Of a stretch of 43,689 nt of DNA, positions 3,402 through 30,137 are shown piece by piece. The translations under genes and the position numbers were made by a program. The stretch is from a virus (taxonomy: Duplodnaviria > Heunggongvirae > Uroviricota > Caudoviricetes): the IMG/VR virus record IMGVR_UViG_3300045988_038444, positions 1 through 43,689 of that record. One strand, 5' to 3'. The notes under the pieces are model-generated. The model saw only the letters and a program-made list of their open reading frames with translations, did not search any database and was not told the origin of the DNA. Numbering within the stretch: the stretch's first letter is position 1; each line of letters starts with the position of its first letter.

Positions 3402-3744
3402 ACTCTGTTACATTGCCGGGCCTTATCGTGCTGATTGTGCGCTTAAAACATCCCGTAACGTGTCGCGCGCTGAACAGGCAGGTAAACGACTTGCTTTACA
3501 ACGTCCGGGGTGGTTCCCGGTTATCCCTCACAAGAACACCGAATTGTGGGACTTTGACGGCGGTTTACGCAATATACAACCCGAATACTACTTGTCAGGC
3601 ACATTAGAAGTTATGCGCCGTTGTGATGCCGTTCTGGTACTTCCTGATTATCGTCGTTCGTCCGGGACTATTGCGGAAATTGCAGAAGCTGAACGTCTGG
3701 GTATTCCTGTGTATTACAGTGTGGAGAGTATCCCACATGGTTGA
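3394..3744 (+). CDS. Nucleoside 2-deoxyribosyltransferase-like (DUF4406-like) protein (116 aa)
   Basis: Start trimmed to ATG 3394 with AGGA 8 nt upstream. The N-terminus has YIAGPYRAD and the segment VLVLPDYRRSSGTIAEIAEAERLGIPVY. Confidence 0.5.
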   Translation: MIKLCYIAGPYRADCALKTSRNVSRAEQAGKRLALQRPGWFPVIPHKNTELWDFDGGLRNIQPEYYLSGTLEVMRRCDAVLVLPDYRRSSGTIAEIAEAERLGIPVYYSVESIPHG

Positions 3745-16083: not shown

Positions 16084-16114
16084 TGTGGTTAACCTTTTCA
16101 CGAAGCATATACAC

Positions 16115-16127
16115 AGTTTAACACGGG
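16115..16127 (-). promoter_or_regulatory. Candidate late promoter motif CCCGTGtTAAACT about 32 nt upstream of the tape-measure ATG
   Basis: The minus strand reads gaCCCGTGtTAAACTgtgtata. A near-identical caCCCGTGgTAAACTataca lies at the same distance upstream of TerL. Confidence 0.35.
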
Positions 16128-16145
16128 TCTAAAAAGCGACAAACG

Positions 16146-16187
16146 TTTAAAATAATTCTTGACGGATTACACAATGATGTGTAACCT
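16146..16187 (+). promoter_or_regulatory. Early promoter copy P1 (TTTAAAATAATTCTTGACGGATTACAC; -35 TTGACG 16159-16164, 17-nt spacer, -10 TAACCT)
   Basis: One of ten nearly identical copies of this element. Confidence 0.7.
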
Positions 16188-16217
16188 ACAATCAACAAAA
16201 CAACGGAGAGTTACAAA

Positions 16218-16397
16218 ATGGCTACTTTCATCATTCTTTTCTTAATCGCTGCTGTATATCTGATCCCAGCACTCATCGCGATTAACGTTAAACATAAACA
16301 ACAAACAGCAATTATTTTACTTAACATCTTTGCGGGTTGGACATTCGTCGGTTGGTTAGGTGCGTTAATCTGGTCTGTGTTAAAAAGCGACAAATAA
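16218..16397 (+). CDS. Superinfection immunity (Imm-like) small membrane protein (59 aa)
   Basis: MATFIILFLIAAVYLIPALIAI...FAGWTFVGWLGALIWSV matches the Imm/PF14373-like pattern. GGAGAG SD. The track's minus ORF 16211..16393 is its shadow. Confidence 0.55.
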   Translation: MATFIILFLIAAVYLIPALIAINVKHKQQTAIILLNIFAGWTFVGWLGALIWSVLKSDK

Positions 16398-16398
16398 G

Positions 16399-17310
16399 AT
16401 GAGTAGGAAACGTTTAACCACAGAAGAGTTTATCACGCGTGCCCGTGAAGTTCATGGGCACAAATACGATTACTCACTAGTGGAGTATTTGAATTGGCGC
16501 ACACCTGTGAAAATCATCTGTCCTATACATGGAGTGTTTGAACAAATTCCTAATAATCATTTAAAAGGACGCAAGTGTTTATTCTGTGCAGGAAATCAAC
16601 AATCAAATACCAATGAATTTATCACAAGGGGGCGCGAAGTTCATGGGGGTAAGTATGGTTATTCGTTGGTGAAATATAAAGACTCTCGGACCAAAGTGAA
16701 AATCATTTGTCCAATACACGGAATGTTTGAACAACGTCCATATAGTCACTTGCAGCAAAAAGCAGGTTGCCCACAATGTGCTTGGGAACAATTGTCTGAA
16801 CAAAGACGTTTATCCGCCGAAGAATTCATTACTCGTGCTCGCGAAGTTCACGGGGACCGTTACGACTATTCGTTGGTGGAGTATGTTAACAATTCCACCC
16901 CTGTAAAAATTATTTGTTCAGAACACGGTGTGTTTGAACAGACACCGGGCAATCACACATTTATGAAAGCTGGCTGTCCCCAGTGCGCTGAAACAGGTTT
17001 TAATCCGTCAGAACCCGGCACGTTATATGTACTCGCTGATGATAAACAGTATCCCACTCTGATTAAAATTGGTATTACAAACGACTTAAAACAGCGACTA
17101 CGACAACTACAACGACGAACTCCGCATCTTGTGGTTAAACTTGTATCGTATCCGTTCCCACATGGCGCTGACGCTTACAAACTGGAACAAGAGGTACACA
17201 AGGTCTTTCACGAACTTAATGCGCGTCTCAAAGGCTTTGACGGTGCTACAGAGTGGTTTAAATACTCTCCTGCAATCCTCGATTACATAAATGAAAAAGC
17301 CCGGAACTAA
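16399..17310 (+). CDS. Homing-endonuclease-like protein HE-1: three N-terminal ~60-aa zinc-ribbon repeats + C-terminal T5orf172/GIY-YIG-like domain
   Basis: Three repeats of EEFITRAREVHGxKYDYSLVEY...KIICPIHGVFEQ...GCPQC. C-terminal GTLYVLADDKQYPTLIKIGITNDLKQRLRQLQRR. Inserted between the G/G-T chaperone genes and the tape measure. Confidence 0.6.
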   Translation: MSRKRLTTEEFITRAREVHGHKYDYSLVEYLNWRTPVKIICPIHGVFEQIPNNHLKGRKCLFCAGNQQSNTNEFITRGREVHGGKYGYSLVKYKDSRTKVKIICPIHGMFEQRPYSHLQQKAGCPQCAWEQLSEQRRLSAEEFITRAREVHGDRYDYSLVEYVNNSTPVKIICSEHGVFEQTPGNHTFMKAGCPQCAETGFNPSEPGTLYVLADDKQYPTLIKIGITNDLKQRLRQLQRRTPHLVVKLVSYPFPHGADAYKLEQEVHKVFHELNARLKGFDGATEWFKYSPAILDYINEKARN

Positions 17311-17330
17311 CCGGGCTTATGTTTATTTTT
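17297..17330 (+). terminator. Rho-independent terminator after HE-1
   Basis: Hairpin AAGCCCGGAACTAACCGGGCTT followed by a T-rich run. Confidence 0.6.
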
Positions 17331-18025
17331 CTTCATCTCGACAACACGTGCAGACCGCAATGCTGTTAACAATTTCCATAGGAACTGTACATCAACGTTG
17401 TACACCCGTGCGTAACGTTCACAGGCAACCCAATCACTATTTATCAAATCAAGATAAGCATACCAATAAAAAACAGCATCAGGTCGCAATTCAGGACGTT
17501 TCTGTACAACAACCGGAACAGATATACCACGTGCAGCCGCCCCTTGTGTAACCCAGTCCAGGTCGTCCCCGTCTGTCTTATCGTTCCACAAGAGGAAGTC
17601 GATCAGTTTTTTTCAATCTGTTTTTCCCATTCGTCCTGGAAGAATGCGGAATTAATTGCGAACTGAATAACACGGCTGTAGATCACCTGACCAAAACGTT
17701 CATCACTTAACAATTCAATAGCTTCTTCGACACTGAATGGTTCCGGTTTGTCATCTTCACCAATCAGTTTCCAGTCCAGCATAAGAACGTTAGCCACAAA
17801 CTTAACACCTTCTGGTGTATATTCCTGATTCCACAGTTTTTCAAAGAAGTTTTCAGACAACACACCGTTCTGTTTTACATAGTCCGCGACTGTTACGTTA
17901 TATACCTGGTTAGCGGTGTTCAGGTTCAACACGGTGATACTGAAATTTTCATTTAAAATCAGTTCAGCAGAAGACTTCAGCACCAGTGGAGAAAGTGCTT
18001 TTTTCAGATGGTCAAACTTTGACAT
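17307..18025 (-). CDS. Tail assembly chaperone G-T fusion via programmed -1 frameshift at AAAAAAC (~17606-17612)
   Basis: The -1 frame after the heptamer runs KKLIDFLLWNDKTDGDD... to 17307. This matches the canonical G/GT arrangement. Confidence 0.5.
17603..18025 (-). CDS. Tail assembly chaperone G
   Basis: 140-aa acidic protein upstream of the tape-measure region. It ends at a slippery A AAA AAC (plus strand 17606-17612) just before its stop. Confidence 0.55.
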   Translation of the reverse strand: MSKFDHLKKALSPLVLKSSAELILNENFSITVLNLNTANQVYNVTVADYVKQNGVLSENFFEKLWNQEYTPEGVKFVANVLMLDWKLIGEDDKPEPFSVEEAIELLSDERFGQVIYSRVIQFAINSAFFQDEWEKQIEKN

Positions 18026-18090
18026 GGTTTTTTTACCTTTTATGTAGTAGACGATTAGATAGTAATAGTTCTGTACAAATTACGCAAGAG

Positions 18091-18133
18091 ATTTAAAATA
18101 ATTCTTGACGAATTACATCTGTTAAGGTATCTT
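18091..18133 (+). promoter_or_regulatory. Early promoter copy P2 (-35 TTGACG 18105-18110, -10 TATCTT)
   Basis: Conserved element ATTTAAAATAATTCTTGACGAATTACA. Confidence 0.7.
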
Positions 18134-18165
18134 TAACTCAACGAAACGAACTGAGGGTAAGAGGG

Positions 18166-18789
18166 ATGGCGATTATTAACATGGGTTGGCATAGTTCTGT
18201 TTTTGAAGGAAATGTTAAACTCCTGGAAGGGGCATATAGTCCTATCCATCGTAATGATATTGGTGGCGATTACCCACCATCTTATTTTCTATACGAAACT
18301 GATCATGGGTGCTGTATCAAAGAACGTGAACGTAACGGTTACCATGATTCAGATTTTGAAATGTTAATATGGAACCCTGAAACAAAAAAGCGCTTCATGG
18401 TATACATTTGCAACTACCCGTGGTTGGTGTTATCCATGCTATGGTTCACGCCCAGATGCAACACCAGAAGTTTTAGAAGCATATAATATTTATGAACAAC
18501 AGCAAGAGGAAAAACGGCAACGTTATTGCAAAATAAAAAGAGTAAACAAGCAACGCAAACTGAACGCACAGTTTAGATTAATAGTACGTGAATTTGGTGT
18601 TGATCGCGAACAAGTTGAAAAACTTTATAAATTATATCACCCAGATATGTTCCCTGTATTTTGTAAACTTCTTAACAGTAATTTACGTTCTGATTTCCGT
18701 AAAAGTTTACGTAAACAACTAGTTGATTGGTTAAAAGGGAACGGTAAGTACGATAAACCATTTTCACCTAAACAAATTCAGTATTTATG
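18166..18789 (+). pseudogene. Split gene: N-terminal ORF 18166..18486 and a +1-frame continuation open 18368..18789, junction at an A6 run (18384-18389)
   Basis: Second frame open for ~140 codons with no ATG and ending 3 nt before the terminator; the two frames overlap only around gaaacAAAAAAgcgc. Confidence 0.4.
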
Positions 18790-18792
18790 AAT

Positions 18793-18819
18793 AAAAAAGC
18801 CCCGGTTTAACGCCGGGGC
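18793..18819 (-). terminator. Rho-independent terminator, strongest on the minus strand (after the major tail protein gene)
   Basis: Hairpin GCCCCGGTTTAACGCCGGGGC with an A6 run on the plus side, which is a U-run on the minus strand. Confidence 0.6.
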
Positions 18820-18839
18820 AACCACTACCAACCACCATG

Positions 18840-20297
18840 TCATGCTGTAGGCAGATATGGGAACAAGCTGAACCCAATCATAAAACCGATCGACTCTTCT
18901 TCGTGGGCGTTACCGCTAACAGTGACTTTCACTTTTTCGCCCGTCACAAGGTTTTTGGAACCGTCGCCCAGTGTCATCGCAGGAATGTTAACCACGATTG
19001 CACCGTCACCGTTTACCCCGGCAAGTTCGAAGTTGACTGTTGCGTTGTTACGGATCGCAGCCAGTACAGCACCGTCTGTCATCACCGTTTCAGTTTCCAT
19101 TGTGATTTCCAGGTTACCGATGTTGGTAAACGCAGCACCCATCACGCCCAGCACGTTTTCACCTGACACGTTGTTATTCACGGTGACAGTAACGTCTTTC
19201 AGGAACGTACTGAGTCCACTATCATCGATCCCGGTCAGTCGTACACGGTTCAGGTTCGTTACGGTGTTGTACGCTTCGTTAGCCACGAATTCAACATACC
19301 CGGAACCCGGCAGCGCGGTTTCTGACGGTGCTGATAAATCCTGTGCTACAAACGTCAGATCCATTGTCATTTTTTCAGTCAACGGTGCGTTGATCGTCAT
19401 CTGGTTTGCAGCTACAGCACGCGCATATTCATAAATAACAGGTGTCGTGTTGTAACGTACTTCCATTGTGTATTCAGTTTTAACGAACTCTGCAGAGTCA
19501 ACAGGAACGTTTCGAACAAAACTGGAAACAAATAAACGTACAGTTTTACCCGTACCTTCTTCAGTGGTGAATTCACTGTTAGCGAGAGTCAGAATATGAT
19601 CACCAACCATAGTCACACGGGCCATTTTACTGGTTACGGACTGTGTTAGACCATCAATATAAACATACTGTCCCGGTACTAAACCCAGTGTGGAAAAATC
19701 CAGGGTGGTAGACGTCAACTGACCATTACTGTTAACAGCGATTTCACCAGACGCTGCAGCATGCCCCACGAGATATAAACGAGCTTCAGCAGGCGGTGAC
19801 GCTTCGGCACTAAGCCCTGACACGTTGATAGCAGTAGTGGTACTATCAGCGCCTACAGTTTTCAAACCGTTGTTTGCAGCCAGTGTAAAACCTGTCGCAT
19901 AAACAAGAGCACCTTTAGGTAATGCCGCATCAAGAGTAGTAACGTTATAAGCATCAGCGCCAACACTGGTAACGTCAATATCAATTGCACCAGCACCGAC
20001 CCATTTACTATAAAGGAATCCGTCACCCCAGTAGCGGAACGTATCAAGTGTCAGGTCTGTCTGAAAGCCCGGTGCAACTTCAACGTTAGTTACCGTGCCT
20101 TTACGTGCAGATCGGTCCGTACTGATCGGTGTACGCTGAGTCTTTGTAATATCAGCACTGTAAGAACTGATTTCATTCGGTTGTTGAACCGTCCAGGGTG
20201 TACCAAAAACAGGTTCACAGACTTTTGCCACACTGAGTCGTGTTGCGTTTACATCAGTCGCAGGTGTTTGCGAACATTTAAAAATTGATTCAGCCAT
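18840..20297 (-). CDS. Major tail (tube) protein, 485 aa, with a C-terminal extra (Ig-like?) domain
   Basis: Abundant Thr/Val-rich beta protein at the position between the tail completion protein and the chaperones. Confidence 0.6.
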   Translation of the reverse strand: MAESIFKCSQTPATDVNATRLSVAKVCEPVFGTPWTVQQPNEISSYSADITKTQRTPISTDRSARKGTVTNVEVAPGFQTDLTLDTFRYWGDGFLYSKWVGAGAIDIDVTSVGADAYNVTTLDAALPKGALVYATGFTLAANNGLKTVGADSTTTAINVSGLSAEASPPAEARLYLVGHAAASGEIAVNSNGQLTSTTLDFSTLGLVPGQYVYIDGLTQSVTSKMARVTMVGDHILTLANSEFTTEEGTGKTVRLFVSSFVRNVPVDSAEFVKTEYTMEVRYNTTPVIYEYARAVAANQMTINAPLTEKMTMDLTFVAQDLSAPSETALPGSGYVEFVANEAYNTVTNLNRVRLTGIDDSGLSTFLKDVTVTVNNNVSGENVLGVMGAAFTNIGNLEITMETETVMTDGAVLAAIRNNATVNFELAGVNGDGAIVVNIPAMTLGDGSKNLVTGEKVKVTVSGNAHEEESIGFMIGFSLFPYLPTA

Positions 20298-20330
20298 TGT
20301 TCTAAGCCTCGTTTGATTGCAATCATTCGT

Positions 20331-20340
20331 AGTTTAATAT
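20331..20340 (-). promoter_or_regulatory. Candidate late promoter -10 (TATATTAAACT) about 34 nt upstream of the major tail protein ATG
   Basis: TAAACT lies at the same distance from the ATG as in the TerL and tape-measure upstream regions, but the CCCGTG part is absent. Confidence 0.25.
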
Positions 20341-20759
20341 ATTTCTTCGTATTCGTAACTAAGTACGACGTTCGTTAAAAACCACGCGTTATCACGACCC
20401 TGATGACGAATATCAACACTCGTGTAAATTAACGGGCGGTCCTGCCAGACACCTTCAAATAATTTTGCAAGCCGATCCGCAATATCAATACTCAAAGTGT
20501 CCATGCCATACTGAGCAGGTGTGCGTACCTGTAAAAAAACGTTTCCTGTTCTTAAACGACGACGACAAACACCTTCCCCACCCAGCGTGGTTATTGTCCA
20601 CGGACCGGGATTGTGTGTCAGAATCAGACCGGGTTTTTCTGTAGTGTCATCAGGGAGTTGACCAGAAGCGATTGTAAATCTGTCAGGCGTAATTTCCACG
20701 GGGAGATTCGCCAGAACGCGATTATAAACAATTCCTGAAACATCTGAGAGTGTCATCAC
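20334..20759 (-). CDS. Tail completion / tail terminator protein (SPP1 gp17-like, DUF3168-like pattern)
   Basis: 141-aa protein with IVYNRVLANLPVEITPDRF...P, at the synteny position. Confidence 0.4.
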   Translation of the reverse strand: MMTLSDVSGIVYNRVLANLPVEITPDRFTIASGQLPDDTTEKPGLILTHNPGPWTITTLGGEGVCRRRLRTGNVFLQVRTPAQYGMDTLSIDIADRLAKLFEGVWQDRPLIYTSVDIRHQGRDNAWFLTNVVLSYEYEEIY

Positions 20760-21184
20760 TGATTAAACCTCACCATTATTCCGGCTTTTAATATAGCACG
20801 TTCGACAAACCCGGAAGGTGTCTGTGTACTGCTACCACCATTGAGAACCCCAATGTAAGGAACGTTGTTAGTAATATGCAGTTCCTGACCATTAACTTTA
20901 ATACTGCTGATAGTGACTGTATCCTGTTCGATACGTGCTTTACTGGCTTCAACATTACCTGTTGGTGTATCAGGACTATTAGCGGGTTGCCCCTGATCGA
21001 ACCACCAGTTGTTGCTTGCCCAGCCACTCAATATTGGTGTACCATCAGGAGGCTCACTTATGAGTATGTTACGTAGTGTTAAAACATATCTAATGACTTG
21101 ACGATCCGTAAAATCTTGTAAGTCGGCTTTTATGTCTTTAAACACTCCAGTAATACGATTTATATCATTGATTTTGCTAGTCAT
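20756..21184 (-). CDS. Head-tail joining protein (HK97 gp10-like)
   Basis: Start trimmed to ATG 21184 to avoid overlap with the divergent HE-2; contains ISEPPDGTPILSGWASNNWW. Confidence 0.4.
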   Translation of the reverse strand: MTSKINDINRITGVFKDIKADLQDFTDRQVIRYVLTLRNILISEPPDGTPILSGWASNNWWFDQGQPANSPDTPTGNVEASKARIEQDTVTISSIKVNGQELHITNNVPYIGVLNGGSSTQTPSGFVERAILKAGIMVRFNQ

Positions 21185-21206
21185 TGACAAACCTAAAGGT
21201 AGAAAA

Positions 21207-22103
21207 ATGGGCGGTAAAAGACTAACCAAAGAACAACTAGAGCATAACATAAAAGATATTTGTCAATCAAAAAATTACAAATTTATAAAATGGAAAGACG
21301 GGTTTAAAAACAAAGAATCACGAATTATTTTATCTTGTGTTACACACGGGGAATGGGACACTAAATGTTATCATTTTTTGAATGGTTCTGGTTGTCCGAT
21401 CTGTGGTGGAACACGAACCACAAAAGGGTTAAGAATTGCACAGATTAAAGACAGTTTAACAAATTCTAAATCAAAGTTTATTAAATTTAAAACTAATTTT
21501 CAAAATGGAAATTCTGTTTGTTTGCTGAGCTGTATTGATCATGGTGGATGGGAGACAACAGTCAATAGACTAATCTTTACATCTGTTGATTGCCCGTTGT
21601 GTATAACGAATAGACAGAAAACTAAACAAGAACGAGAAATTGAAATAACAAATAGATGTAAAGAAACAGGGTTGTTTTTTAATAAGATATTCGACGAACA
21701 TCCGACATGGAAATCTAAAATATCATTAAAGTGTTCAACGCATGGTGATTTTGTTACAACAATTAATTCTTTTCTTAGTAAACAAAAAGGTTGTCCAAAC
21801 TGTAGTAAAACAGGGTTTAAAGCTGGTAAGTATGCAACACTTTATGTCTTGCGGTCCACATGCGGTCGTTACGTTAAAATAGGTATCAGTAATTGTGTAG
21901 AGCAAAGAATTAATACACTTCGTAGAAAAACACCATTTGATTTTCAAGTAATAGAAAAATTGAATGGACACGGGGCAACCATTCGTTCACTTGAAAAAGA
22001 TTTTCATTCTCATTTTGAATCTGCAGGATTAACCGGGTTCGATGGTTGTACAGAGTGGTTAAAATGGAATCCAAATATAACCACTCTGATACGGATGTTA
22101 TAG
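21207..22103 (+). CDS. Homing-endonuclease-like protein HE-2: three CxxHG...CPxC zinc ribbons + C-terminal T5orf172/GIY-YIG-like domain
   Basis: CVTHGEWDT..GCPICGG, CIDHGGWET..DCPLC and CSTHGDFVT..GCPNC. C-terminal ATLYVLRSTCGRYVKIGISNCVEQRINTLRRK...FDGCTEWLKWNPNITTLIRML. Start trimmed to ATG 21207. Confidence 0.6.
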   Translation: MGGKRLTKEQLEHNIKDICQSKNYKFIKWKDGFKNKESRIILSCVTHGEWDTKCYHFLNGSGCPICGGTRTTKGLRIAQIKDSLTNSKSKFIKFKTNFQNGNSVCLLSCIDHGGWETTVNRLIFTSVDCPLCITNRQKTKQEREIEITNRCKETGLFFNKIFDEHPTWKSKISLKCSTHGDFVTTINSFLSKQKGCPNCSKTGFKAGKYATLYVLRSTCGRYVKIGISNCVEQRINTLRRKTPFDFQVIEKLNGHGATIRSLEKDFHSHFESAGLTGFDGCTEWLKWNPNITTLIRML

Positions 22104-22481
22104 TTATACCGCTCCAACAGGATGAATAAATGCCATATCATCCCCTAACAATCGTGGGTTTTGACGATCAAGAAGGCGATATTCTTTACCACGTTCATCA
22201 ACCACAACATCACCCCGATCAGGAACAAATCGTGGTTCAAAACTCTGACTATCCATAATTACCATCGTTGTGGTTATTCTGGTCATAGTAGTCGGATCCC
22301 ACTTTTCTAATGGGTAAATATAACCACGACACGTATGCGATTCAGTAACGGTTGTACCCGGTAATGTAGGATTAGACGGGTTGGGAACTGTTATCACACG
22401 TTTTACCGTCAAATCCTCACCTACTTCAGCAAGTGCACGAGTAACACCTTTCAGGACACTTTGACGTTTGTCTGCCATCAC
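22104..22481 (-). CDS. Head closure / head-tail adaptor protein (putative)
   Basis: 125-aa protein in the connector module; called on synteny only. Confidence 0.35.
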   Translation of the reverse strand: MMADKRQSVLKGVTRALAEVGEDLTVKRVITVPNPSNPTLPGTTVTESHTCRGYIYPLEKWDPTTMTRITTTMVIMDSQSFEPRFVPDRGDVVVDERGKEYRLLDRQNPRLLGDDMAFIHPVGAV

Positions 22482-22888
22482 CGTTCACCCTCGTTAAGTG
22501 CACGACCACCGCTTTCAAGTGTTACAGGTGGGTTGTCGAACTGACCACGTTGAATAGCAGGTTGCATACCAGCGCCAGTTAATGTAGCTCCACCAACACC
22601 CATAAAACTACCTAACAAACCGCCACCTGAATCAGCGCCAGTATTAATACGTAAAATAAAATCTTTTTTAAGTTTATTCCAGGCGTCTGCTGACTGACTA
22701 CTGCTGAGTGAGATCGGACCTACTTTAATGTCAGTATCGTTGCTGGCAATAGACGCCATATAATCACAGAGAGCGACGCAAATACTGAGAGGATTTGTAT
22801 AACCGTTGTCAATGTACCACTGAATTTGTTCATCAGTAACATCAGGGACACTGATCAAATAACGAATACCTTCAACTGTAATAGCCAT
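22478..22888 (-). CDS. Head-tail connector protein (putative)
   Basis: Start trimmed to ATG 22888 with AGGTGA SD; the track's N-terminal extension lacks an SD. Confidence 0.4.
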   Translation of the reverse strand: MAITVEGIRYLISVPDVTDEQIQWYIDNGYTNPLSICVALCDYMASIASNDTDIKVGPISLSSSQSADAWNKLKKDFILRINTGADSGGGLLGSFMGVGGATLTGAGMQPAIQRGQFDNPPVTLESGGRALNEGER

Positions 22889-22926
22889 GTGATCACCTGT
22901 GAGAAATGTTTTCGTTATATTAGCAC

Positions 22927-22952
22927 GAAAAAAAGCCGTCTTAAACAGACGG
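22927..22952 (-). terminator. Rho-independent terminator on the minus strand
   Basis: Hairpin GCCGTCTGTTTAAGACGGC followed by U7 when read on the minus strand. Confidence 0.65.
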
Positions 22953-23162
22953 CAAATGGCTCTGGGTGATAATGAGGGTTTTACATAACTGGTCATCCAC
23001 ACCTGACGTCCCAACATACCCCTATGCGTGACACGTGAATAACCAGTTATGTAAAACGACACGCAGTTCAGGATGTTTCACAACATGCTTTACCCACGAT
23101 TTGCGGCTTTCCCGCCAGCAAGATAAGGATCACCTCCTTATCAGCGAGTGTTTGGGTTGTGG

Positions 23163-23235
23163 CGGTTGGAATCGAACCAACTCCCATCGGTGCGATTCCA
23201 ACCGCAGTACGCGCAGCGGTCCGCTACATGACTAG
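23163..23235 (-). ncRNA. tRNA-like element: canonical T-arm (GGTTCGATTCC) within an 8-bp acceptor-like helix (GCGGTTGG...CCAACCGC-CA), plus an upstream D-arm-like stem containing GG
   Basis: Minus-strand RNA ...GCGGUUGGAAUCGCACCGAUGGGAGUUGGUUCGAUUCCAACCGCCA. No room for an anticodon arm could be found by eye. Confidence 0.25.
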
Positions 23236-23459
23236 TATTTTCACGGTCGCCTATCTGCTAGCTCGCCATTGAGCTTCACCACAACGGAAAGAGCACTGGA
23301 ACTTGGGCTGAGTATTACCGCATGTCTTTCGACTTCGAACCAAGGCTGACATTACCCAATGCTCTTACCTGTTATGTGCCGGTTACGTTTATCCGGCGTC
23401 TTTCGACCGATTAAGTGATAGTGTCTGCTATGCAGTTCTGTCACTGACTTAACAATAGG

Positions 23460-23813
23460 TCAAGAATAGTTATATGTCAAGCCTTGTGATTCACACCATT
23501 TAGCAGCGGCACTTTTACTACTAAACGATTCTGAATTCATCGGCATACCCATAACATAAACATTATAGGTTTTTGGCGCATCACGTCGGATTTCAGCCGC
23601 AGTGGTTGATGCCGATTCTTCGGTTGCTACAGTCACTGGTTCTTCAACGGTCGCAGTAGCTGGTTCAATGTGGCGCATACGCACAAGGGCGTTTAAAACA
23701 GCCGGGGTAGCTTTTGATGTTGATACTTTATCGCCAGCGGACATCTGTTTACCGTTCCACAGCATCGGACGGGTGAAAACATATTTCAGTGACGGATCAT
23801 ATGAATTACGCAT
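23460..23813 (-). CDS. Hypothetical structural-module protein (117 aa)
   Basis: Start trimmed to ATG 23813 with GAGGT SD, directly after the post-MCP terminator. Confidence 0.45.
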   Translation of the reverse strand: MRNSYDPSLKYVFTRPMLWNGKQMSAGDKVSTSKATPAVLNALVRMRHIEPATATVEEPVTVATEESASTTAAEIRRDAPKTYNVYVMGMPMNSESFSSKSAAAKWCESQGLTYNYS

Positions 23814-23830
23814 GATTTTAACCTCATGAA

Positions 23831-23858
23831 AAAAGGGGCAGCATAAGCCACCCCTTAA
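23831..23858 (-). terminator. Rho-independent terminator immediately after the major capsid gene (minus strand)
   Basis: Minus strand AAGGGGTGGCTTATGCTGCCCCTTTTTT. Confidence 0.6.
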
Positions 23859-23875
23859 TGATATCACAGTTGTTA

Positions 23876-24895
23876 TTAAACCGCGTCGTAGAACAGAACG
23901 CCCAGGTCAGGTGCAACCATCTGAACATCAATGGCAAATTCCGCTTCAACGAAATTACCACGACGGCCTTCGACACCCGGATAGGTACGGATAGACGGAC
24001 CGTTGTTAACGCCCAGACCGATGAACTCGTTCCACACGAAGCCCGCAGCCGCAACAGGTTTCATATTGCCAACAGTCGGTTCAACATAGTTGAGCATCAG
24101 CACACCAGTTTTAGCAAACCGGAAGTCTGACAGCGGATTGCCGTTACTGTCTTCAACGCCATCAGCAGCCATGTTGACCACAGACTGCATGATTTCCAGT
24201 TCGTCAACTTCCAGCAGTGCAGCCAGTGCCTGTTTAGTCACGATCCCAGGGTTCTGAGTGGTAGAACCACCGTTAATACGGTCAATAACAGCCGGGCTAC
24301 GGGTCAGTGCGTCATACACGTCCAGCGTCATCAGTGCTTTGTTCCAGCGACGACCACCGGATGCCAGAGAGAACGCAACACGACGTGACAGGATATCACC
24401 AATCGGATCGGCATTCGCATTAGACCATTTCAGGAATCCACCCGTGGACGGAGACGAGCCTTTACCCTGGAAATCAAGACCCCATTTACCAGCGGTCAGG
24501 AATTTTTCAGCAAAATCCACTTCTTTGTTGATCAGCAACGCATCTGTGGTTACTGCTGACGCTTCCATATCCAGTTGCTGACCGTTTTGAACGTTTGCAC
24601 GTTTTTTGTCAGAAATAAAGATACGGATCGCATCGTCATCAACGGTGTAACCCTGGTTTTTGGTTTTGTAACCAATAGTATTAGCAACACCATCTTCGGC
24701 ACGTTTGGAGTTAACCGGACGACCGAAATAACCTTTCGGGTAAGTCAGGAATTTACCAGCAGCCTGGTTAACAGGAACTACCGGGAAATAACGAGTACCG
24801 ACAAACAGTGACGTATCCTGCCAGTAACTTACAGAAAAGTTAGACAGGAATGTATCTGGTGCGCCAACGTCGCGAAAATTCTGTTTGTAACTCAT
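23876..24895 (-). CDS. Major capsid protein (lambda gpE-like size, 339 aa)
   Basis: Position after the decoration and scaffold genes, terminator immediately downstream, size and composition typical of gpE-type MCPs. Confidence 0.7.
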   Translation of the reverse strand: MSYKQNFRDVGAPDTFLSNFSVSYWQDTSLFVGTRYFPVVPVNQAAGKFLTYPKGYFGRPVNSKRAEDGVANTIGYKTKNQGYTVDDDAIRIFISDKKRANVQNGQQLDMEASAVTTDALLINKEVDFAEKFLTAGKWGLDFQGKGSSPSTGGFLKWSNANADPIGDILSRRVAFSLASGGRRWNKALMTLDVYDALTRSPAVIDRINGGSTTQNPGIVTKQALAALLEVDELEIMQSVVNMAADGVEDSNGNPLSDFRFAKTGVLMLNYVEPTVGNMKPVAAAGFVWNEFIGLGVNNGPSIRTYPGVEGRRGNFVEAEFAIDVQMVAPDLGVLFYDAV

Positions 24896-24898
24896 CGG

Positions 24899-25309
24899 TT
24901 ATGCTCCTTTAGAATACGGTGCAATAAGTAATGCGGTAACTACCTGGTCTTCTTCAGTGGCTGCAGTTTGAGAAATAGCCACGACCAGTTGTGTATCAGT
25001 AGCGGTCTGGAATCGTCCGTCAGCACCAACAGCAAGCTCAACACCTGTGTCGAACGTTGCAGCAGCTTTTACTGGTACGAATTTTTCTTTTTCGTTTACC
25101 AGGTCGAAGAATACACCAGCAGTGGCATCATCAACAGCTACACCGTCGATACGACCGTCAGCCGTTGGGAATTTGTATTTAGGTACACACTGGTTAGTGT
25201 CACCTAAACTGGTATCCAGAACAAGACCAACACCTGCCGAAATAGCCACGGATGCAACGGCACGGGTCGGGCGCTCATAGTTCCAGTAGATTTTGCTGTT
25301 CTTAGCCAT
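24899..25309 (-). CDS. Head decoration protein (gpD-like)
   Basis: 136-aa Ala/Thr/Gly-rich protein immediately upstream of the MCP. Confidence 0.5.
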   Translation of the reverse strand: MAKNSKIYWNYERPTRAVASVAISAGVGLVLDTSLGDTNQCVPKYKFPTADGRIDGVAVDDATAGVFFDLVNEKEKFVPVKAAATFDTGVELAVGADGRFQTATDTQLVVAISQTAATEEDQVVTALLIAPYSKGA

Positions 25310-26568
25310 TATTCGTCACCTCGCATCGCTTCGATTGCTTCCTGACCTTTTTTAGTTGCAGAAACTGCCTGCATAGCCTGGGTGCGTGTTTTACCCGGAT
25401 TTGCTTTCAGCCATTCGTTGATCATGTCTTCCAGTGCACTGGAACCTTTACCACTACCGTTCGGCGCTGCTGGCTCTTTACGTGCTTTCCAGAGTTCGTC
25501 GGCCTGTTTGAGTTTTTCAACCAGAAAGTTACGATCCGCTTCCGGTAAACGCTCAAGAGTCATGACCATTTGGGTTTTCTGTACCATTTCACCCGGAATG
25601 TGTGCGAAATCAGCGTTCACGGTTTTTTCAGCTTTCGCCAGTGCCGCTTCAGTCTGTGCTTTGCGAAGTTGTTCGTCCTGAGATTTCAGAACATCATACA
25701 TCGGACCAGCTACAGACTTCTGAACAACCTGACCAGCAATCGTGGTAAACGATTCATCAGCCTGTTTAGCCATCGTCACGAGGGCATCGCGAGCAGTGGC
25801 ATCCATTTTACGGAATGCTTCCTGATCAGATTCAGGCAGAGAATTATGATACGCCTTATGGACGTCGTTCATCTCAGCCAGGGCTTTGTATTTTTCCAGT
25901 TCGGACATTTCGATTTCCTCTGCCGTTTTTAAAACTTGAGGTACTTCCTGGTCCGGGTGTAATTTTTTCCACGCGGATCGGACTTTGTTTTTCACACCTG
26001 CTAAATCGGCTTCAGGGATTTCAACTTTGTTACCGCGATAACCCGGACCTAATGCAGCAAGTGCAGCGCCTACAATACGCGCATCAGGTTCACCGCCAGG
26101 GGTAGCTGTTAAACGAAGTTTCCAGGTTGAAGGTTTTTCTGGATCTGGCACATATGCATAATCAGATGCCGGGAAAACTTCACCGTCTTCAGTTTTACCA
26201 CCTTTCGCTTTATTCATCGAAATACCAGCGGCCTGTTGCAACGTTATAATATATTCATTTACCGCGTCACGCAATGCTGCTTGTTTATCGGTAACAGAAT
26301 CATCTTTTGCAATATCCTCTGCTGCTTCATAAAGCGCATCGTTCAACATCCACGAATTAGAGAGGAAATCACGAACTTTCTGTTCAAGTTCTTTTTCAGC
26401 CAGTGCCGCGCTGAATGTTGACTTTAAAAGAACAACAGCAGGCGGTTCTGAATGTGATTTAAGAACAAGAGCATTTGCTCCCTCGTGAGCAGGTTTTGTC
26501 ACGCCGGACAGAAAACCGATCTTCATCGATTTAGCGCGGCGTAAATGATTAGTACCATCTGTACGCAT
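25309..26568 (-). CDS. Scaffolding protein (possibly a protease-scaffold fusion), 419 aa
   Basis: Highly alpha-helical, Lys/Glu/Ala-rich protein upstream of the decoration and MCP genes. Confidence 0.5.
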   Translation of the reverse strand: MRTDGTNHLRRAKSMKIGFLSGVTKPAHEGANALVLKSHSEPPAVVLLKSTFSAALAEKELEQKVRDFLSNSWMLNDALYEAAEDIAKDDSVTDKQAALRDAVNEYIITLQQAAGISMNKAKGGKTEDGEVFPASDYAYVPDPEKPSTWKLRLTATPGGEPDARIVGAALAALGPGYRGNKVEIPEADLAGVKNKVRSAWKKLHPDQEVPQVLKTAEEIEMSELEKYKALAEMNDVHKAYHNSLPESDQEAFRKMDATARDALVTMAKQADESFTTIAGQVVQKSVAGPMYDVLKSQDEQLRKAQTEAALAKAEKTVNADFAHIPGEMVQKTQMVMTLERLPEADRNFLVEKLKQADELWKARKEPAAPNGSGKGSSALEDMINEWLKANPGKTRTQAMQAVSATKKGQEAIEAMRGDE

Positions 26569-26978
26569 TATTCCACATCCTCATAATATGCAGTTCCACC
26601 GATACTATATCCCGTATATTCACCAGTCTGAAACTTTTTCAAAACTTCGTCATCAGTTATCAACGTACCAACAATGACGCCTGTCTGATCCAGTTTATCA
26701 ACCAGTCCAAAACTTGCTGCAATGTCTTCGGTCATCGGGAACGCAAACACAACTTTCCCAACAGGTTGTTGATTATGCATATTATCCATGATGCGCTGAT
26801 CAGAATTCATGAAGTCCAACCATGCTTTCAGAGTGACATCCTCGGGAAATTGCTCGTTGTCCGTGTCTGTGTAAATTTCTAACTGACCTGTCTCCTGATT
26901 ACGTTTTTTACAGATACTACCCCAACCGAATACCATACGTAGTGAGTTGTCAACCTTATTAACTTTTACGTTAATCAC
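26568..26978 (-). CDS. Hypothetical head-module protein (possible prohead protease, XkdF-like?)
   Basis: 136-aa protein between the HE fragment and the scaffold gene; the function call is weak. Confidence 0.3.
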   Translation of the reverse strand: MINVKVNKVDNSLRMVFGWGSICKKRNQETGQLEIYTDTDNEQFPEDVTLKAWLDFMNSDQRIMDNMHNQQPVGKVVFAFPMTEDIAASFGLVDKLDQTGVIVGTLITDDEVLKKFQTGEYTGYSIGGTAYYEDVE

Positions 26979-27385
26979 GGGGATTGTCCTCGTATTGTTT
27001 CAACATGACTAAATTCTAACATTTCGGATGAATAATTGCACTGGTGATACACGCTGTTTACAACGTTACCGAATATCTCAGAAAGATTCTTGATCGGTTC
27101 AACAGCAGTCGTTACTGGTTCAACAGCAGTCGTTACTGGTTCAACAGTAGTCGTTACCGGTTCAACAGTAGTCGTTACCGGTTCAACAGCAGTCGTTACT
27201 GGTTCAACAGCGTCCAGATGTTCAGCGACAACCTGGAAAAACACTGTGTTAGTTTCACGGTCAATAATAACCACTGTGCTGGAACTATCTTCAACAATGC
27301 TGAATGAGTAGTCGTAACGATCACCGTGAATTTTACGGGCGCGACGAATGAATTCGTCTGTAGCAACTCTGATGTTCGGATCCAT
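26975..27385 (-). CDS. Homing-endonuclease-related fragment: one EFIRRARKIHGDRYDYS module + (VEPVTTA)x6 repeat + short C-terminus; no nuclease domain
   Basis: DEFIRRARKIHGDRYDYSFS matches the HE-1 repeat. Start trimmed to ATG 27385 (AAGGG SD). Driven by the minus-strand promoter copy at 27416-27462. Confidence 0.5.
   Translation of the reverse strand: MDPNIRVATDEFIRRARKIHGDRYDYSFSIVEDSSSTVVIIDRETNTVFFQVVAEHLDAVEPVTTAVEPVTTTVEPVTTTVEPVTTAVEPVTTAVEPIKNLSEIFGNVVNSVYHQCNYSSEMLEFSHVETIRGQSP
27096..27215 (-). repeat. Tandem 21-bp repeat (ggttcaacagcagtcgttact, ~5.7 copies) encoding VEPVTTA heptads
   Basis: Copies at 27096, 27117, 27138, 27159 and 27180, plus a partial copy. Confidence 0.85.
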
Positions 27386-27415
27386 ACATTCAACCCTTCT
27401 TGTTCTCTTAACCAC

Positions 27416-27462
27416 AGGGTAGTTGTGTCGGTGTAATCCGTCAAGAATTATTTTGCGTATAG
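27416..27462 (-). promoter_or_regulatory. Early-type promoter copy on the MINUS strand (revcomp = CAAAATAATTCTTGACGGATTACACCGACACAACTACCCTGTGG), divergent from P3
   Basis: Near-identical (about 90%) to P3 over ~45 nt including the spacer; -35 CGTCAA at plus 27439-27444; -10 TACCCT. Confidence 0.65.
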
Positions 27463-27526
27463 ATTCATGGGAAGTATGCGACCCCCTATACCTTTTAAAC
27501 CTCTCCTACTTGCAGCAACTTTTACT

Positions 27527-27637
27527 ACTTATACTACTCTTCTATTTATCTATGTTTATTATGTTTTCTATAAAAAGATAACAAAAAGAATAAGATAGAG
27601 AGGGGTTGGTTAAAAAGTAAACATGACGAAATATATG
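27527..27637. repeat. Conserved ~105-bp intergenic element, copy A (core ttctataaaaagataacaaaaagaataagatagagaggggttggttaaaaagtaaacatgacgaaatatatg)
   Basis: About 90% identical to 42607-42713. Confidence 0.8.
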
Positions 27638-27651
27638 AATCTATGATCTAC

Positions 27652-27733
27652 TAATACACGTTCTGTATTAGCCGCAACTCAAAATCATGAAACCTATGTA
27701 GAACTATGTGCAGTTAGTACACGTTCTGTATTA
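27652..27733. promoter_or_regulatory. Two 19-bp palindromic operator-like sites TAATACAcgttcTGTATTA (27652-27670) and TAGTACAcgttcTGTATTA (27715-27733), 63 bp apart, just upstream of P3
   Basis: Perfect 7-bp inverted repeat with a 5-bp spacer; the second copy has one mismatch. Confidence 0.55.
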
Positions 27734-27740
27734 ACTGCAT

Positions 27741-27783
27741 CTTTAAAATAATTCTTGACGGATTACACCGACGCAACTATCTT
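27741..27783 (+). promoter_or_regulatory. Early promoter copy P3 (-35 TTGACG 27755-27760, -10 TATCTT)
   Basis: CTTTAAAATAATTCTTGACGGATTACACCGACGCAACTATCTT. Confidence 0.7.
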
Positions 27784-27814
27784 GTGGTTAACAGGAAGAA
27801 AAAGGAGACATGCA

Positions 27815-27883
27815 ATGATTTACTACATACTGGCTTTCATGATTTTCGCAGCACCTGTGATCGTAGGAATAGTAAGAGGTTAA
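27815..27883 (+). CDS. Possible 22-aa hydrophobic micropeptide (MIYYILAFMIFAAPVIVGIVRG)
   Basis: ATG with GGAGA SD right after P3. Confidence 0.2.
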   Translation: MIYYILAFMIFAAPVIVGIVRG

Positions 27884-27887
27884 CAGT

Positions 27888-28436
27888 ATGAACGAACTGA
27901 CAAACACCAACGTTGATTTCACAATGTCCAGCCTGGATTTCTTGAAGAATGTTATCAACCCAGCACGTGTGGCTGAAGGTGAGGAAGTCTGGGTCCGTCA
28001 TAATGATTTCTTAGCCAGAGTTAAGGATGAATTAGAAGGTCAAGTTTTGGTTACGAAACTTTTCACACCCAAACTTCAGGGAAGAGGTGGCAATAGAAAA
28101 CCGTTTGAAGTGGTCGATCTAAACATGGATCAAATGCTTCTTGTGGGTATGCGTGAATCTAAAGCCGTTCGCAAAGCTGTATTAGCCAAATTAAAGAAGT
28201 TGAATAACCACCAACACCAACCGTTACTACAGTTACAGTGTGAAATCGGAGAATTGCACAAACAGAATGACGAACTACGTAACGAAATTGAAGTCGATCG
28301 TAAGACCTATGATTTGTTGTTGGTAGACATGAAAAAGTTATGGGAAGAGAAAGAAAATCTGCAAAAAGAATTAACTGCTTTGCGTAAACAGGATGATGTT
28401 CGTAAACGTGCGCTTAAACTTTTACTTGGGTTATAA
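27888..28436 (+). CDS. Putative regulatory/DNA-binding protein with a C-terminal coiled coil (Rha/antirepressor-like?)
   Basis: 182 aa; N-terminal ...FEVVDLNMDQMLLVGMRESKAVRKAVLAKLKKL, C-terminal heptad-rich ELHKQNDELRNEIE. Confidence 0.4.
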   Translation: MNELTNTNVDFTMSSLDFLKNVINPARVAEGEEVWVRHNDFLARVKDELEGQVLVTKLFTPKLQGRGGNRKPFEVVDLNMDQMLLVGMRESKAVRKAVLAKLKKLNNHQHQPLLQLQCEIGELHKQNDELRNEIEVDRKTYDLLLVDMKKLWEEKENLQKELTALRKQDDVRKRALKLLLGL

Positions 28437-28439
28437 CCT

Positions 28440-28601
28440 ATGGGTAAAAAGAAACGGAAACAGCCTGTCAAGAAAGAACCATATAACCCACGGCATGTTA
28501 ATGAGTTATGGGCTAAAGATGTGGACGATTTTACTGAATCTGACTGGAGTAAAGTCACAAGGTTGATCGTTAAATTAAGACGACTATCGAGGTACGCGTA
28601 A
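28440..28601 (+). CDS. Small basic protein (53 aa)
   Basis: ATG 28440; stop overlaps the next ATG (TAATG). Confidence 0.3.
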   Translation: MGKKKRKQPVKKEPYNPRHVNELWAKDVDDFTESDWSKVTRLIVKLRRLSRYA

Positions 28602-28876
28602 TGTGTTACTGTATGAAAAAAGTTGGTGACGAACTTCAAAAACGTCTGATGGAAAAAGTACCAGTAGGTTCGGAAGTCAGCACTAACCTGTTTGATAAAG
28701 TTGGCTGGGATAATCAGTGTTTCGGTCTGACGTCTGGTAAAACTTACGTTATGTTGAAATATCGTCTTGCATACCGTGCTAAAAAGAAAAACGGTGAACT
28801 GGCGAAGAACTTCACGCGCCTGGAAACCAACATCAAAATGTCTTATTGTCCATTCTGCGGGGAGAAACAGGAGTAA
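28601..28876 (+). CDS. Small zinc-ribbon protein (C-x2-C ... CPFCG)
   Basis: Track ORF; Cys pairs at both ends. Confidence 0.4.
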   Translation: MCYCMKKVGDELQKRLMEKVPVGSEVSTNLFDKVGWDNQCFGLTSGKTYVMLKYRLAYRAKKKNGELAKNFTRLETNIKMSYCPFCGEKQE

Positions 28877-29104
28877 TCGCTATGGGAATGAAACAAATAT
28901 GGGATGGTAAAACCTTCCTTCTGTTGGTTGTGAAGTATTGATCCATCTGGCAAGCATTAACAAGTGGGTGGCACGAACTGTTCAGGGTTATGAAATATGG
29001 CCTTCTGTTTATGAAAATGATACGGCACATCACAGGGTAAACATAAAATTTGAAGATAATGTTCGTCTGTTATGTGATGTGCGACCTCTTGACTGGCGTG
29101 AACC

Positions 29105-29178
29105 TGATTAACTTGGTTCGATGGCTGTACTGAGTGGTTAAAATGGAATCCAAATATAACCACTCTAATACGTATAAT
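29105..29178 (+). pseudogene. Remnant of a homing-endonuclease 3' end (~90% nt identity to the last 70 nt of HE-2; WFDGCTEWLKWNPNITTLIRIITG*)
   Basis: cttggttcgatggctgtactgagtggttaaaatggaatccaaatataaccactctaatacg versus HE-2 ccgggttcgatggttgtacagagtggttaaaatggaatccaaatataaccactctgatacg. Confidence 0.6.
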
Positions 29179-30137
29179 CACGGGATAACATTTATATCTT
29201 GAGGGAGAGAATAAGCAACCCGGCAACGACAATTAATCACGTTCGCAGCACTACCGTTAGGATCACGAGGAAACATAAGTGGTCCTAACGGCGTTGAAAA
29301 CGGTCTGTCCATTGGTATCCAGCCGTTCGTTTCACCTGTAGAAATATGCGCATCACGTGTCCGACCATCTTTTCTATATAACCAGCGCTTCAGCAATTCA
29401 TTACTAATAGCCCCGGTAATCTGTCCCTGACGTATTGCCTGATCCTGACCAACTGATACAGCACGAAGTGATTCAGTACGCGCTATTGTCTCTGTACGCT
29501 GTTTTACATAACGCAAGCGTGTCTGTTCGATTATCTGGTCAATCTTCACCTGTGATAGTTTCCCGGCACTTACAGCGTTCTTCGCACTGTCTGTAACAGT
29601 GGTCAGACTGTTCACATAACCTGCTTCACCTTTTTCCAGTGCTGATCGTAGACGTTGAACCGTCATTTCCTGCCGTGTGGTTAACCCTATTGATGATCGA
29701 AAATCACGGGCTATCTGACGCGGATTTCGTCCGGTTACCATACCCTGGTTAACTGCAATCTGAACAGCTTTGACTGTTTCGTCACTGACTTCACGGATCA
29801 GTTGTCCGACATAGTTGTTGATATATGTGCTGACCTGTGGGGTGACCAGACTGAACACAACCGGACCTGTTACAGCCGCTTTCGGTAGAACCTGAACGAC
29901 TACACGACCTGATTCAGCGATCGCATCTTCAATAACCGGGCGCAACTGTGCACTAAGTTCATCAGGAAGTGTTTCAAGAATGGGGAGTAACCCGGCAATA
30001 CCTTGGGTTTCAATAATGTATTCCAGGTTGGCTAACGACTCACTACGACGCACGTTTTCCCACACAACATCAAGTGCTTCGCGAATGCGAGCGTCATACT
30101 TGTCTGAAATATCCGGGTATGGGTCTTTAGTAGCCAT
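29178..30137 (-). CDS. Head morphogenesis protein (SPP1 gp7 / Mu F-like)
   Basis: Family-typical segment ...NYVGQLIREVSDETVKAVQIAVNQGMVTGRNPRQIARDF...; size 319 aa. Confidence 0.65.
   Translation of the reverse strand: MATKDPYPDISDKYDARIREALDVVWENVRRSESLANLEYIIETQGIAGLLPILETLPDELSAQLRPVIEDAIAESGRVVVQVLPKAAVTGPVVFSLVTPQVSTYINNYVGQLIREVSDETVKAVQIAVNQGMVTGRNPRQIARDFRSSIGLTTRQEMTVQRLRSALEKGEAGYVNSLTTVTDSAKNAVSAGKLSQVKIDQIIEQTRLRYVKQRTETIARTESLRAVSVGQDQAIRQGQITGAISNELLKRWLYRKDGRTRDAHISTGETNGWIPMDRPFSTPLGPLMFPRDPNGSAANVINCRCRVAYSLPQDINVIP

Follow-up and report, generated by a model that had tools for sequence, protein, structure and literature searches.

Barth, Dunham & Seed 2023 (PMC10448857) described free-standing homing endonuclease genes (HEGs) in ICP1, T5-like, Plateaulakevirus and VpaJT-like phages, in which repeated CapR, DUF723 or DUF4379 zinc fingers accompany a T5orf172 nuclease domain. 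Such HEGs cluster near the terminase, capsid, TAC and tape-measure protein (TMP) genes, undergo in-frame repeat deletions, swap their DNA-binding and nuclease parts, and are found at the edges of exchanged segments. CapR of the PLE satellite is a domesticated derivative of a T5orf172 HEG (Netter et al., PMC8096241). Here we analyze genes of this class in IMG/VR virus record IMGVR_UViG_3300045988_038444, a DNA stretch of 43,689 nucleotides (hereafter the window, meaning the whole stretch) that is part of a Sashavirus/9NA-like coliphage. At a rough probability of 85%, we conclude that the late structural gene cluster of this phage lineage has been colonized at three sites by paralogous free-standing T5orf172 (GIY-YIG) HEGs, all antisense to the cluster. 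Two of them, HE-1 (16399-17310, plus strand) and HE-2 (21207-22103, plus strand), are present in full in the window, and the third, HE-3, is represented by a remnant (29106-29188, plus strand).

The window genes resemble those of Barth et al. 2023 in having several zinc-finger modules followed by T5orf172 and in standing free beside essential genes, among them tail assembly chaperone, TMP and capsid genes. Their parts are likewise mosaic (as seen between HE-2 and HE-3 and between their nuclease domains), they are positioned at a segment boundary, and the loss of one repeat from HE-1 of phage PJ16, as an in-frame deletion through recombination of modules with each other, corresponds to ICP1 gp174*. 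They differ in belonging to a Sashavirus/Nonanavirus coliphage lineage not highlighted in that study, in being antisense to the late operon in every copy, and in the packaging of one copy with imm, a superinfection-immunity gene, and a phage-type promoter. A further difference is that the full cycle is legible here nucleotide by nucleotide, from a co-conversion tract through a recoded target to a deletion remnant that three genomes have in common. The finding is unsurprising to specialists, the class having already been described by Barth et al. 2023; it adds a new set of T5orf172 HEG members from a further phage lineage, for which the comparative evidence is unusually complete.

The mechanism is likely to be homing, by analogy with the family. 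Upon co-infection, when HEG-bearing and HEG-less phages share one cell, the enzyme would recognize and cut a long target in the HEG-less allele, close to the point where its own gene is inserted; repair of the break from the HEG-bearing genome would then copy the HEG together with flanking donor sequence. In this respect the window genes are comparable to T4 SegA-G and I-TevI, with putative intronless homing between genes and co-conversion of the flanks. The flank conversion is asymmetric, as in those systems, which suggests that the cut falls some way off from where the HEG is inserted. Unlike I-TevI, the proteins have a C-terminal nuclease of the T5orf172 branch and tandem zinc ribbons, not an array of zinc finger, minor-groove helix and helix-turn-helix.

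Domain architecture of HE-1 and HE-2

Domain searches support the assignment of HE-1 (303 aa) and HE-2 (298 aa) to zinc-ribbon plus T5orf172/GIY-YIG proteins of the homing-endonuclease type. An earlier note on this DNA, made from the sequence alone, had proposed three repeats and a nuclease domain for HE-1, and Pfam bears this out: DUF723 is matched in three stretches (E=3.9e-17), along with T5orf172 (E=4.4e-13) and MUG113 (E=3.1e-12). HE-2 matches CapR in three stretches (E=2.4e-18), MUG113 (E=2.6e-8) and T5orf172 (E=5.2e-5). The nuclease-domain scores of both proteins for T5orf172 and MUG113 (50.0 and 47.3 bits for HE-1; 24.1 and 34.8 bits for HE-2) lie above the curated Pfam cut-offs of 20 bits for T5orf172 (PF10544) and 22.3 bits for MUG113 (PF13455). 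Both proteins fall into phrog_681 of PHROGs, annotated as 'endonuclease'. We aligned 20 homologs, including HE-1, HE-2 and 9NA gp46. HE-1 and HE-2 have three zinc ribbons each, with invariant C-x2-H...C-x2-C ligands; Y213, K224, G226, N229, R234, E263, G280, T282, E283 and W284 are invariant or nearly so, and the nuclease motif reads G-F-D-G-x-T-E-W. From their conservation, the Tyr of the first strand, the Arg and the Glu would be the residues with catalytic roles. The nuclease domain and three ribbons that the earlier note saw in HE-2 are thus present, but its description of the ribbons as degenerate, and of the gene as a partly decayed stage, does not hold: the ribbons are divergent and of the CapR type, all their ligands are kept, and the nuclease motifs are intact.

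Modelled alone, the C-terminal domain (~95 aa) is predicted to adopt the GIY-YIG alpha/beta fold (structure prediction, Foldseek), so that the proposed nuclease domains have both family matches and a modelled fold. The full-length HE-2 model (pTM 0.35) displays three repeated units of a helix and three strands in its N-terminal part; Foldseek with this model returned nothing significant and only weak GIY-YIG hints, because the domains are loosely connected. A PDB sequence search with HE-1 gave no match up to E=10, and PADLOC, run on the window, reported only weak nuclease-domain matches to PDC-S57. All three HE proteins have the same layout, three zinc-ribbon modules strung like beads ahead of the nuclease domain. 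HE-2 and HE-3 share 44-46% of their residues overall and almost all of the last ~40, and the HE-2 nuclease domain is 74% identical to that of 307-aa (HE-3-length) homologs. A study of ICP1 Odn reportedly found nuclease activity for a T5orf172 protein.

An Rfam search of the window found no group I intron and no other family; the HE genes are therefore free-standing. The idea of an intron-borne HEG was dropped on this result; the neighbouring genes on both sides are complete.

Filled, empty and deleted alleles

Megablast of the region against GenBank phages places the window among Sashavirus/Nonanavirus siphophages at 91-97% identity, the matching relatives including Sasha, Sergei, Solent, 9NA, AVIO78A, PJ16, PDP46, Bas82, 536P12 and BDX09P1. 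Empty alleles exist for every locus, and alignment with HE-less relatives, which the earlier note had suggested as a check, fixed the insertion sites: the HE-2 junction, a 9-bp replacement at HE-1 and the HE-3 locus. The site occupancies given below are counts, not frequencies; scans of the viral and metagenome collections gave 9 and 7 loci.

HE-2, with its three CapR-type zinc ribbons and T5orf172 domain, was correctly placed by the earlier note between neck genes. Comparison with empty alleles locates it, antisense, between the stop codon (22104) of the Sasha gp39 homolog (22104-22481, minus strand) and the start codon (21184) of the gp40 homolog, a Neck1/tail-completion gene (20756-21184, minus strand). 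Only 1 nt lies between the gp39 stop and the gp40 start of Sasha, whereas the window has 919 bp there, including HE-2 on the opposite strand. An empty site is seen in each of the 15 matched 9NA/Sasha-group GenBank records. The HE-2 ATG at 21207 is preceded by a good Shine-Dalgarno sequence, and the GC content of the gene is 33%, against 43% for the window. The left flank is ~100% identical to seven close Sashavirus-type relatives up to 21000, but from ~21026 to the HE-2 junction the identity to the same seven drops to 70-82%. This co-conversion tract (21026-21186, minus strand; ~160 bp) forms the 5' end of the Neck1 gene and adjoins HE-2. It is closer to 9NA and to HE-2-bearing contigs (88-96%; 88-92% for the metagenomic contigs with HE-2), and it changes the first codons of the gp40 homolog from MAKANVND to MTSKIND. 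On the right, differences are confined to the final codon of gp39 and its stop codon. Copies of HE-2 in two close relatives, contigs L022 and L033, are 99.3-99.7% identical and both carry the tract, while the HE-2-less close relatives are without it (3 filled vs at least 13 empty). Orthologs with 63-84% amino acid identity occupy the same junction, also antisense, in five more divergent 9NA-like contigs. The pattern is the one that would be expected for double-strand-break repair from a divergent donor, and because conversion extends into the Neck1 gene, it suggests that the HE-2 cut site lies in that gene.

HE-3 (307 aa) is intact in PDP46, KP13-27 and contigs L022 and L027. On one side it is flanked by a 231-bp gene; on the other it overlaps the 3' end of the Mu F-like head-morphogenesis gene (29178-30137, minus strand) by 11 nt. 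Relative to PDP46, the window has a ~923-bp deletion with a short imperfect microhomology at GATTAAC, which has reduced HE-3 to 81 nt: the last 26 codons and the stop (29106-29188, plus strand). This surviving piece includes the 11-nt overlap with the 3' end of the essential gene. The earlier note had reported the likeness of this remnant to the 3' end of HE-2, and 29106-29175 is indeed 91% identical to HE-2 positions 22027-22096 (tblastn E=3e-9 to 3e-11). An origin from HE-2, however, is rejected: the remnant is closer to the 3' end of HE-3 (96% in protein, 97% in DNA), and the deletion junction maps to the HE-3 locus, where the gene is intact in relatives. The same junction is found in contigs L030 and L032, making three genomes with a clean loss of HE-3. 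Because L030 and L032 carry the junction without HE-1, and L032 also without HE-2 (its gp39/gp40 junction is intact and empty), the deletion allele is old enough for reassortment to have taken place. Contig L022 (IMGVR_UViG_3300045988_029198, 58 kb; 97-98% identical to the window over 12-27 kb) carries HE-1, HE-2 and an intact HE-3 together, as would be expected of the ancestors of the window prior to the HE-3 deletion.

Allele comparison also delimits an HE-3-linked 3' end of the head-morphogenesis gene (29178-29219, minus strand). It includes a 19-nt patch (29201-29219) in which 11 of 19 nucleotides differ from the HE-less alleles, altering the amino acid in 2 of 7 codons. The encoded C-terminus is RVAYSLPQDINVIP (DINVIP before the stop) in the window and PDP46, as against RVQYSLPEDIGSLG (DIGSLG before the stop) in AVIO78A, PJ16, Bas82, Sasha and 9NA. 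KP13-27 shares the window-type 3' end, the HE-less genomes have the native sequence, and in PDP46 a vestige of the native end persists on the left side of HE-3. The simplest reading of the recoded patch is a former target made uncleavable; if the patch is such an immune target, the window presumably represents the 'lost but immune' stage of the homing cycle.

The HE-3 promoter in PDP46 (L005 3460-3545) and KP13-27 (L006 2270-2350), TTGACC-17-TAATAT, is close to consensus. A hairpin (AACCTCCTGTTG...CAACAGGAGGTT) carries the -10 box in its loop and the Shine-Dalgarno sequence in its right arm. Read-through RNA would hide the ribosome-binding site in this hairpin, and RNA started at the HE-3 promoter itself would expose it. 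A comparable control is known for T4 I-TevI.

HE-1, with three DUF723 zinc-ribbon modules and a T5orf172 nuclease domain, is part of a cassette that also comprises a promoter and imm (16126-17286, plus strand; 1161 bp by junction alignment with Sasha, PDP46 and AVIO78A). The cassette replaces 9 bp (TTAACCATA) of the empty allele within a ~70-bp spacer between the T chaperone gene (G/T chaperones, 17307-18025, minus strand) and the tape-measure gene (13519 to ~16083, minus strand), the position first noted from the sequence and now established against empty alleles. It is present in Bas82, 536P12, BDX09P1, PJ16 and L022, and absent from Sasha, PDP46, AVIO78A, 9NA and the other fetched loci covering the site. 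Three direct repeats of 150 nt, beginning at 16410, 16599 and 16806, are 68-71% identical. The last ~8 codons of HE-1 consist of native intergenic/terminator sequence: the frame ends inside a bidirectional terminator-like hairpin (17297-17318) that HE-1 and the T chaperone gene share at their 3' ends and that is also found in empty alleles.

On its other side the cassette meets a divergent allele of the TMP 5' region, ~1.2 kb in length (14891-16125, minus strand) and seen only in HE-1-bearing genomes. HE-1-less Sasha, PDP46 and AVIO78A are 96-98% identical to the window up to ~14.8 kb and from there show no alignment or 76-84% identity, whereas all HE-1-bearing relatives match the window TMP 5' region at 94-100%. 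The TMP coding sequence measures 2568 bp in HE-1-bearing Bas82 and PJ16 (860 aa in the window) vs 2916 bp in HE-1-less genomes, and the protein has about 855-860 aa in HE-1 carriers vs 971 aa. The exchanged block, 14891-17286, ends exactly at HE-1. A selfish gene that travels with imm as cargo and marks the edge of a TMP allele swap supports the view that such nucleases shape phage mosaicism.

A rival view, that the flank patterns are chance recombination mosaics and the genes were inserted by illegitimate recombination, draws on the high mosaicism of 9NA-like phages and on the small genome sample. We regard it as very improbable, since a divergent patch abuts the insertion in three independent cases and is seen only in current or former HE carriers. 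The HE-2 tract separates filled from empty close relatives in the counts given above, and the HE-3 patch is found in those filled genomes whose gene end was read (PDP46, KP13-27 and L027) and in the three deletion remnants, against the native allele elsewhere.

The cargo gene imm (16218-16397, plus strand) encodes a putative superinfection-immunity protein of 59 aa (Pfam PF14373, Imm_superinfect: E=3.4e-17, 62.5 bits vs a cut-off of 27.9; phrog_1039). Like T4 Imm it is a small membrane protein of the PF14373 family; unlike T4 Imm it is found as cargo of a HEG cassette between tail chaperone and tape-measure genes. Upstream of it, repeat search and alignment revealed a 27-nt promoter-like repeat, TTTAAAATAATTCTTGACGGATTACAC (16146-16172, plus strand), with further copies at 18092-18118 (plus), 27742-27768 (plus) and 27431-27454 (minus); the copies are 93-100% identical. 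Because it has a TTGACG -35 box and a -10-like hexamer 17 nt downstream, TTTAAAATAATTCTTGACGGATTACAC is probably a phage-specific promoter, and it could also act as a recombination point for cassette shuffling. The copies have an A/T-rich upstream part and precede imm/HE-1, the gp43 homolog, the accessory gene block and the head operon.

Among carriers of the cassette, the promoter and imm are 98-99% identical, and the zinc-ribbon region of HE-1 is a patchwork of near-identical stretches and stretches of 60-70% identity. Two alleles are broken. In PJ16, HE-1 is one whole repeat shorter and contains a nonsense change (CAC GAA to CAT TAA); in BDX09P1, a 2-nt deletion falls where the nuclease domain of HE-1 begins. 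The imm gene is 98-99% conserved in all HE-1-bearing relatives, these two included. The HE-1 alleles of PJ16 and BDX09P1 are the real decay intermediates. Since HE-1 is broken there while the promoter and imm are intact, HE-1 is decaying in some lineages and its cargo is kept. The persistence of imm where HE-1 is broken also indicates that this useful cargo is probably what keeps the cassette in place.

The same cassette is one argument for a different account, in which the T5orf172 proteins are kept because they are useful to the phage—as nucleases that shut out rival phages or break down satellites, in the manner of ICP1 Odn, or as regulators—and their patchiness is moron mosaicism. The cassette is moron-like in having imm and its own promoter repeat, common to other accessory cassettes; CapR and Odn are exapted family members; and the PADLOC matches of the nuclease domain, weak as they are, concern a candidate defence family. 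We nevertheless consider this account unlikely: HE-1 breaks by frameshift and nonsense while imm stays intact, each of the three paralogs is found at a single exact site and only the bases beside the insertion show donor-type changes, and HE-3 was cleanly lost in three genomes.

HE-2 presents a different state from that of HE-1. Because its ligands and nuclease motifs are intact, and it is AT-rich, absent from the GenBank records of the group and accompanied by a donor-derived tract, it appears to have arrived later than HE-1, an ordering that we infer. The invasion and decay cycle proposed in the earlier note therefore survives as a core reading, without the order of four stages that had been given to it.

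Colonization by free-standing HEGs accounts for several hallmarks of homing seen together at this locus: precise filled and empty alleles at each site, a co-conversion tract, a recoded patch, complete linkage of the HE-1 cassette to a TMP allele, and decay after fixation. Other points weigh against it. Cleavage and homing by HE-1, HE-2 and HE-3 are deduced from sequences, and the target sites from flank patterns only; our literature search found no experimental homing by a T5orf172 HEG. For HE-2 there is no convincing promoter, a scan having given no more sites than shuffled sequence, and with 84% amino acid identity for the best ortholog, its donor is not in the databases. The linkage between HE-1 and the TMP allele comes from 6 filled and ~10 empty genomes, numbers for which ordinary mosaicism is possible. 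By comparison with the T4 seg genes, lying antisense within a late operon is unusual.

The locus documents, at the level of single nucleotides and within one phage population, the entire life cycle of T5orf172 homing endonucleases: they arrive with a co-converted flank, become fixed with a target that is recoded, decay by point mutation and are deleted, the site left behind being presumably immune. Bas82, PDP46, AVIO78A and Sasha provide empty and filled pairs in culture collections, in which homing would be directly measurable.

An HE-derived ORF in the head operon

One more element of the window is related to the HE genes. It is an open reading frame (ORF) of 136 aa (26975-27385, minus strand), made up of half a DUF723 module, VEPVTTA heptads and a lineage-specific C-terminus. 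Residues 6-58 match single DUF723 modules of many phage homing endonucleases (BLASTP against the HE-1 modules, E~1e-8 to 1e-10), and over 56 nt its DNA is 79% complementary to repeat 3 of HE-1; the rest of the protein matches nothing outside the E. coli-infecting clade. The heptads are encoded by 5.5 copies of a 21-nt tandem repeat (27096-27211, minus strand), present in 1 to 10 copies among relatives. The earlier note had recognized the origin of this fragment from an HE module, its heptads and its lack of a nuclease, but its inclusion as a stage in the same series as HE-1 and HE-2 is contradicted by its opposite strand, its place as the first gene of the head operon and its intact ORF everywhere examined.

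The fragment may be a decaying pseudogene of a former homing endonuclease with no function of its own, a possibility that we weigh seriously while placing it short of probable. It keeps ~50 aa of one DUF723 module and has neither zinc ligands nor a nuclease domain: the Cys/His ligand positions hold Asp and Thr/Asn, and a downstream CxxC is missing. Pfam no longer recognizes it, finding neither DUF723 nor CapR and only spurious low-complexity matches, and the heptad copy number varies freely. The fragment is absent from Sasha, 9NA and KP13-27, and is therefore dispensable for this virion type. Yet it is intact in 7 of 7 genomes examined, all six E. coli-infecting GenBank relatives among them, and it occurs in 98 protein clusters (108-171 aa) with conserved N- and C-terminal parts, bearing in mind that protein databases cannot show disrupted copies. 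Third codon positions account for 11 of 21 variable sites, and pooled pN/pS is ~0.32 in the non-repeat part, values with little test power at the low overall divergence. In addition, the gene stands directly behind a copy of the promoter-like TTTAAAATAATTCTTGACGGATTACAC, and 4 nt at its 3' end are shared with the start of the protease gene.

The ORF is HE-derived, and the evidence leans towards its retention across the E. coli-infecting clade. That the fragment is a new, small lineage-specific protein, exapted from the DNA-binding module of a homing endonuclease and carrying a heptad array of 1-10 copies, is more doubtful than the pseudogene; such a protein could be a regulator, a decoy against related endonucleases or a participant in head assembly. 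CapR offers a parallel in being a DNA-binding piece of a HEG that has lost the nuclease and become a separate conserved gene. It differs in keeping its Cys ligands and binding DNA through them, whereas the fragment is without any ligands and has a hypervariable heptad array.

Other family members and neighbouring genes

A tblastn search with the HE proteins found no further T5orf172-family members in the window beyond the four elements described above. Two ORFs of similar length were considered and rejected: the 304-aa ORF at 40103-41017 (plus strand) encodes a homolog of RdgC (PF04381), and that of 297 aa at 3623-4516 (plus strand) an N6/N4 DNA methylase (PF01555). Outside the window, 9NA gp46 (L016 11692-12588) is a family member at a fourth site, 39% identical to HE-1 and antisense between the tail terminator and tube genes; neither the window nor any other relative examined has an insertion there.

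The structural genes of the window, including those named in the preceding sections, are on the minus strand and were identified by homology to annotated relatives. The head-morphogenesis gene is followed by the XkdF-type protease gene (26568-26978), the capsid genes (between the protease gene and the gp39 homolog), the gp39 homolog and the Neck1 gene; the tail terminator and tube genes lie between the Neck1 gene and the chaperones, followed by the tape-measure gene. The gp43 homolog (18166-18790, plus strand; 207 aa, phrog_30881) is frameshifted by an extra A at 18384 in an A-run and is otherwise ~99.5% identical to Sasha; either the gene is a pseudogene or the extra base is a homopolymer sequencing error. 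In other E. coli relatives gp43 is shorter or missing.

The region 27394-27805 is a control region between the head operon and a plus-strand accessory block. It is bounded by a 61-nt inverted repeat (27394-27454 / 27745-27805; 85% complementary) consisting of two divergent promoter/leader copies, and between the arms there is a 53-nt direct repeat (27632-27747; 72% identical). Variable accessory genes occupy 27888-29111 (plus strand), between the head-morphogenesis and protease genes. They include an anti-repressor-like protein (27888-28436, plus strand) and a phrog_7033 protein (28601-28876, plus strand), and the content of this block differs among all relatives.

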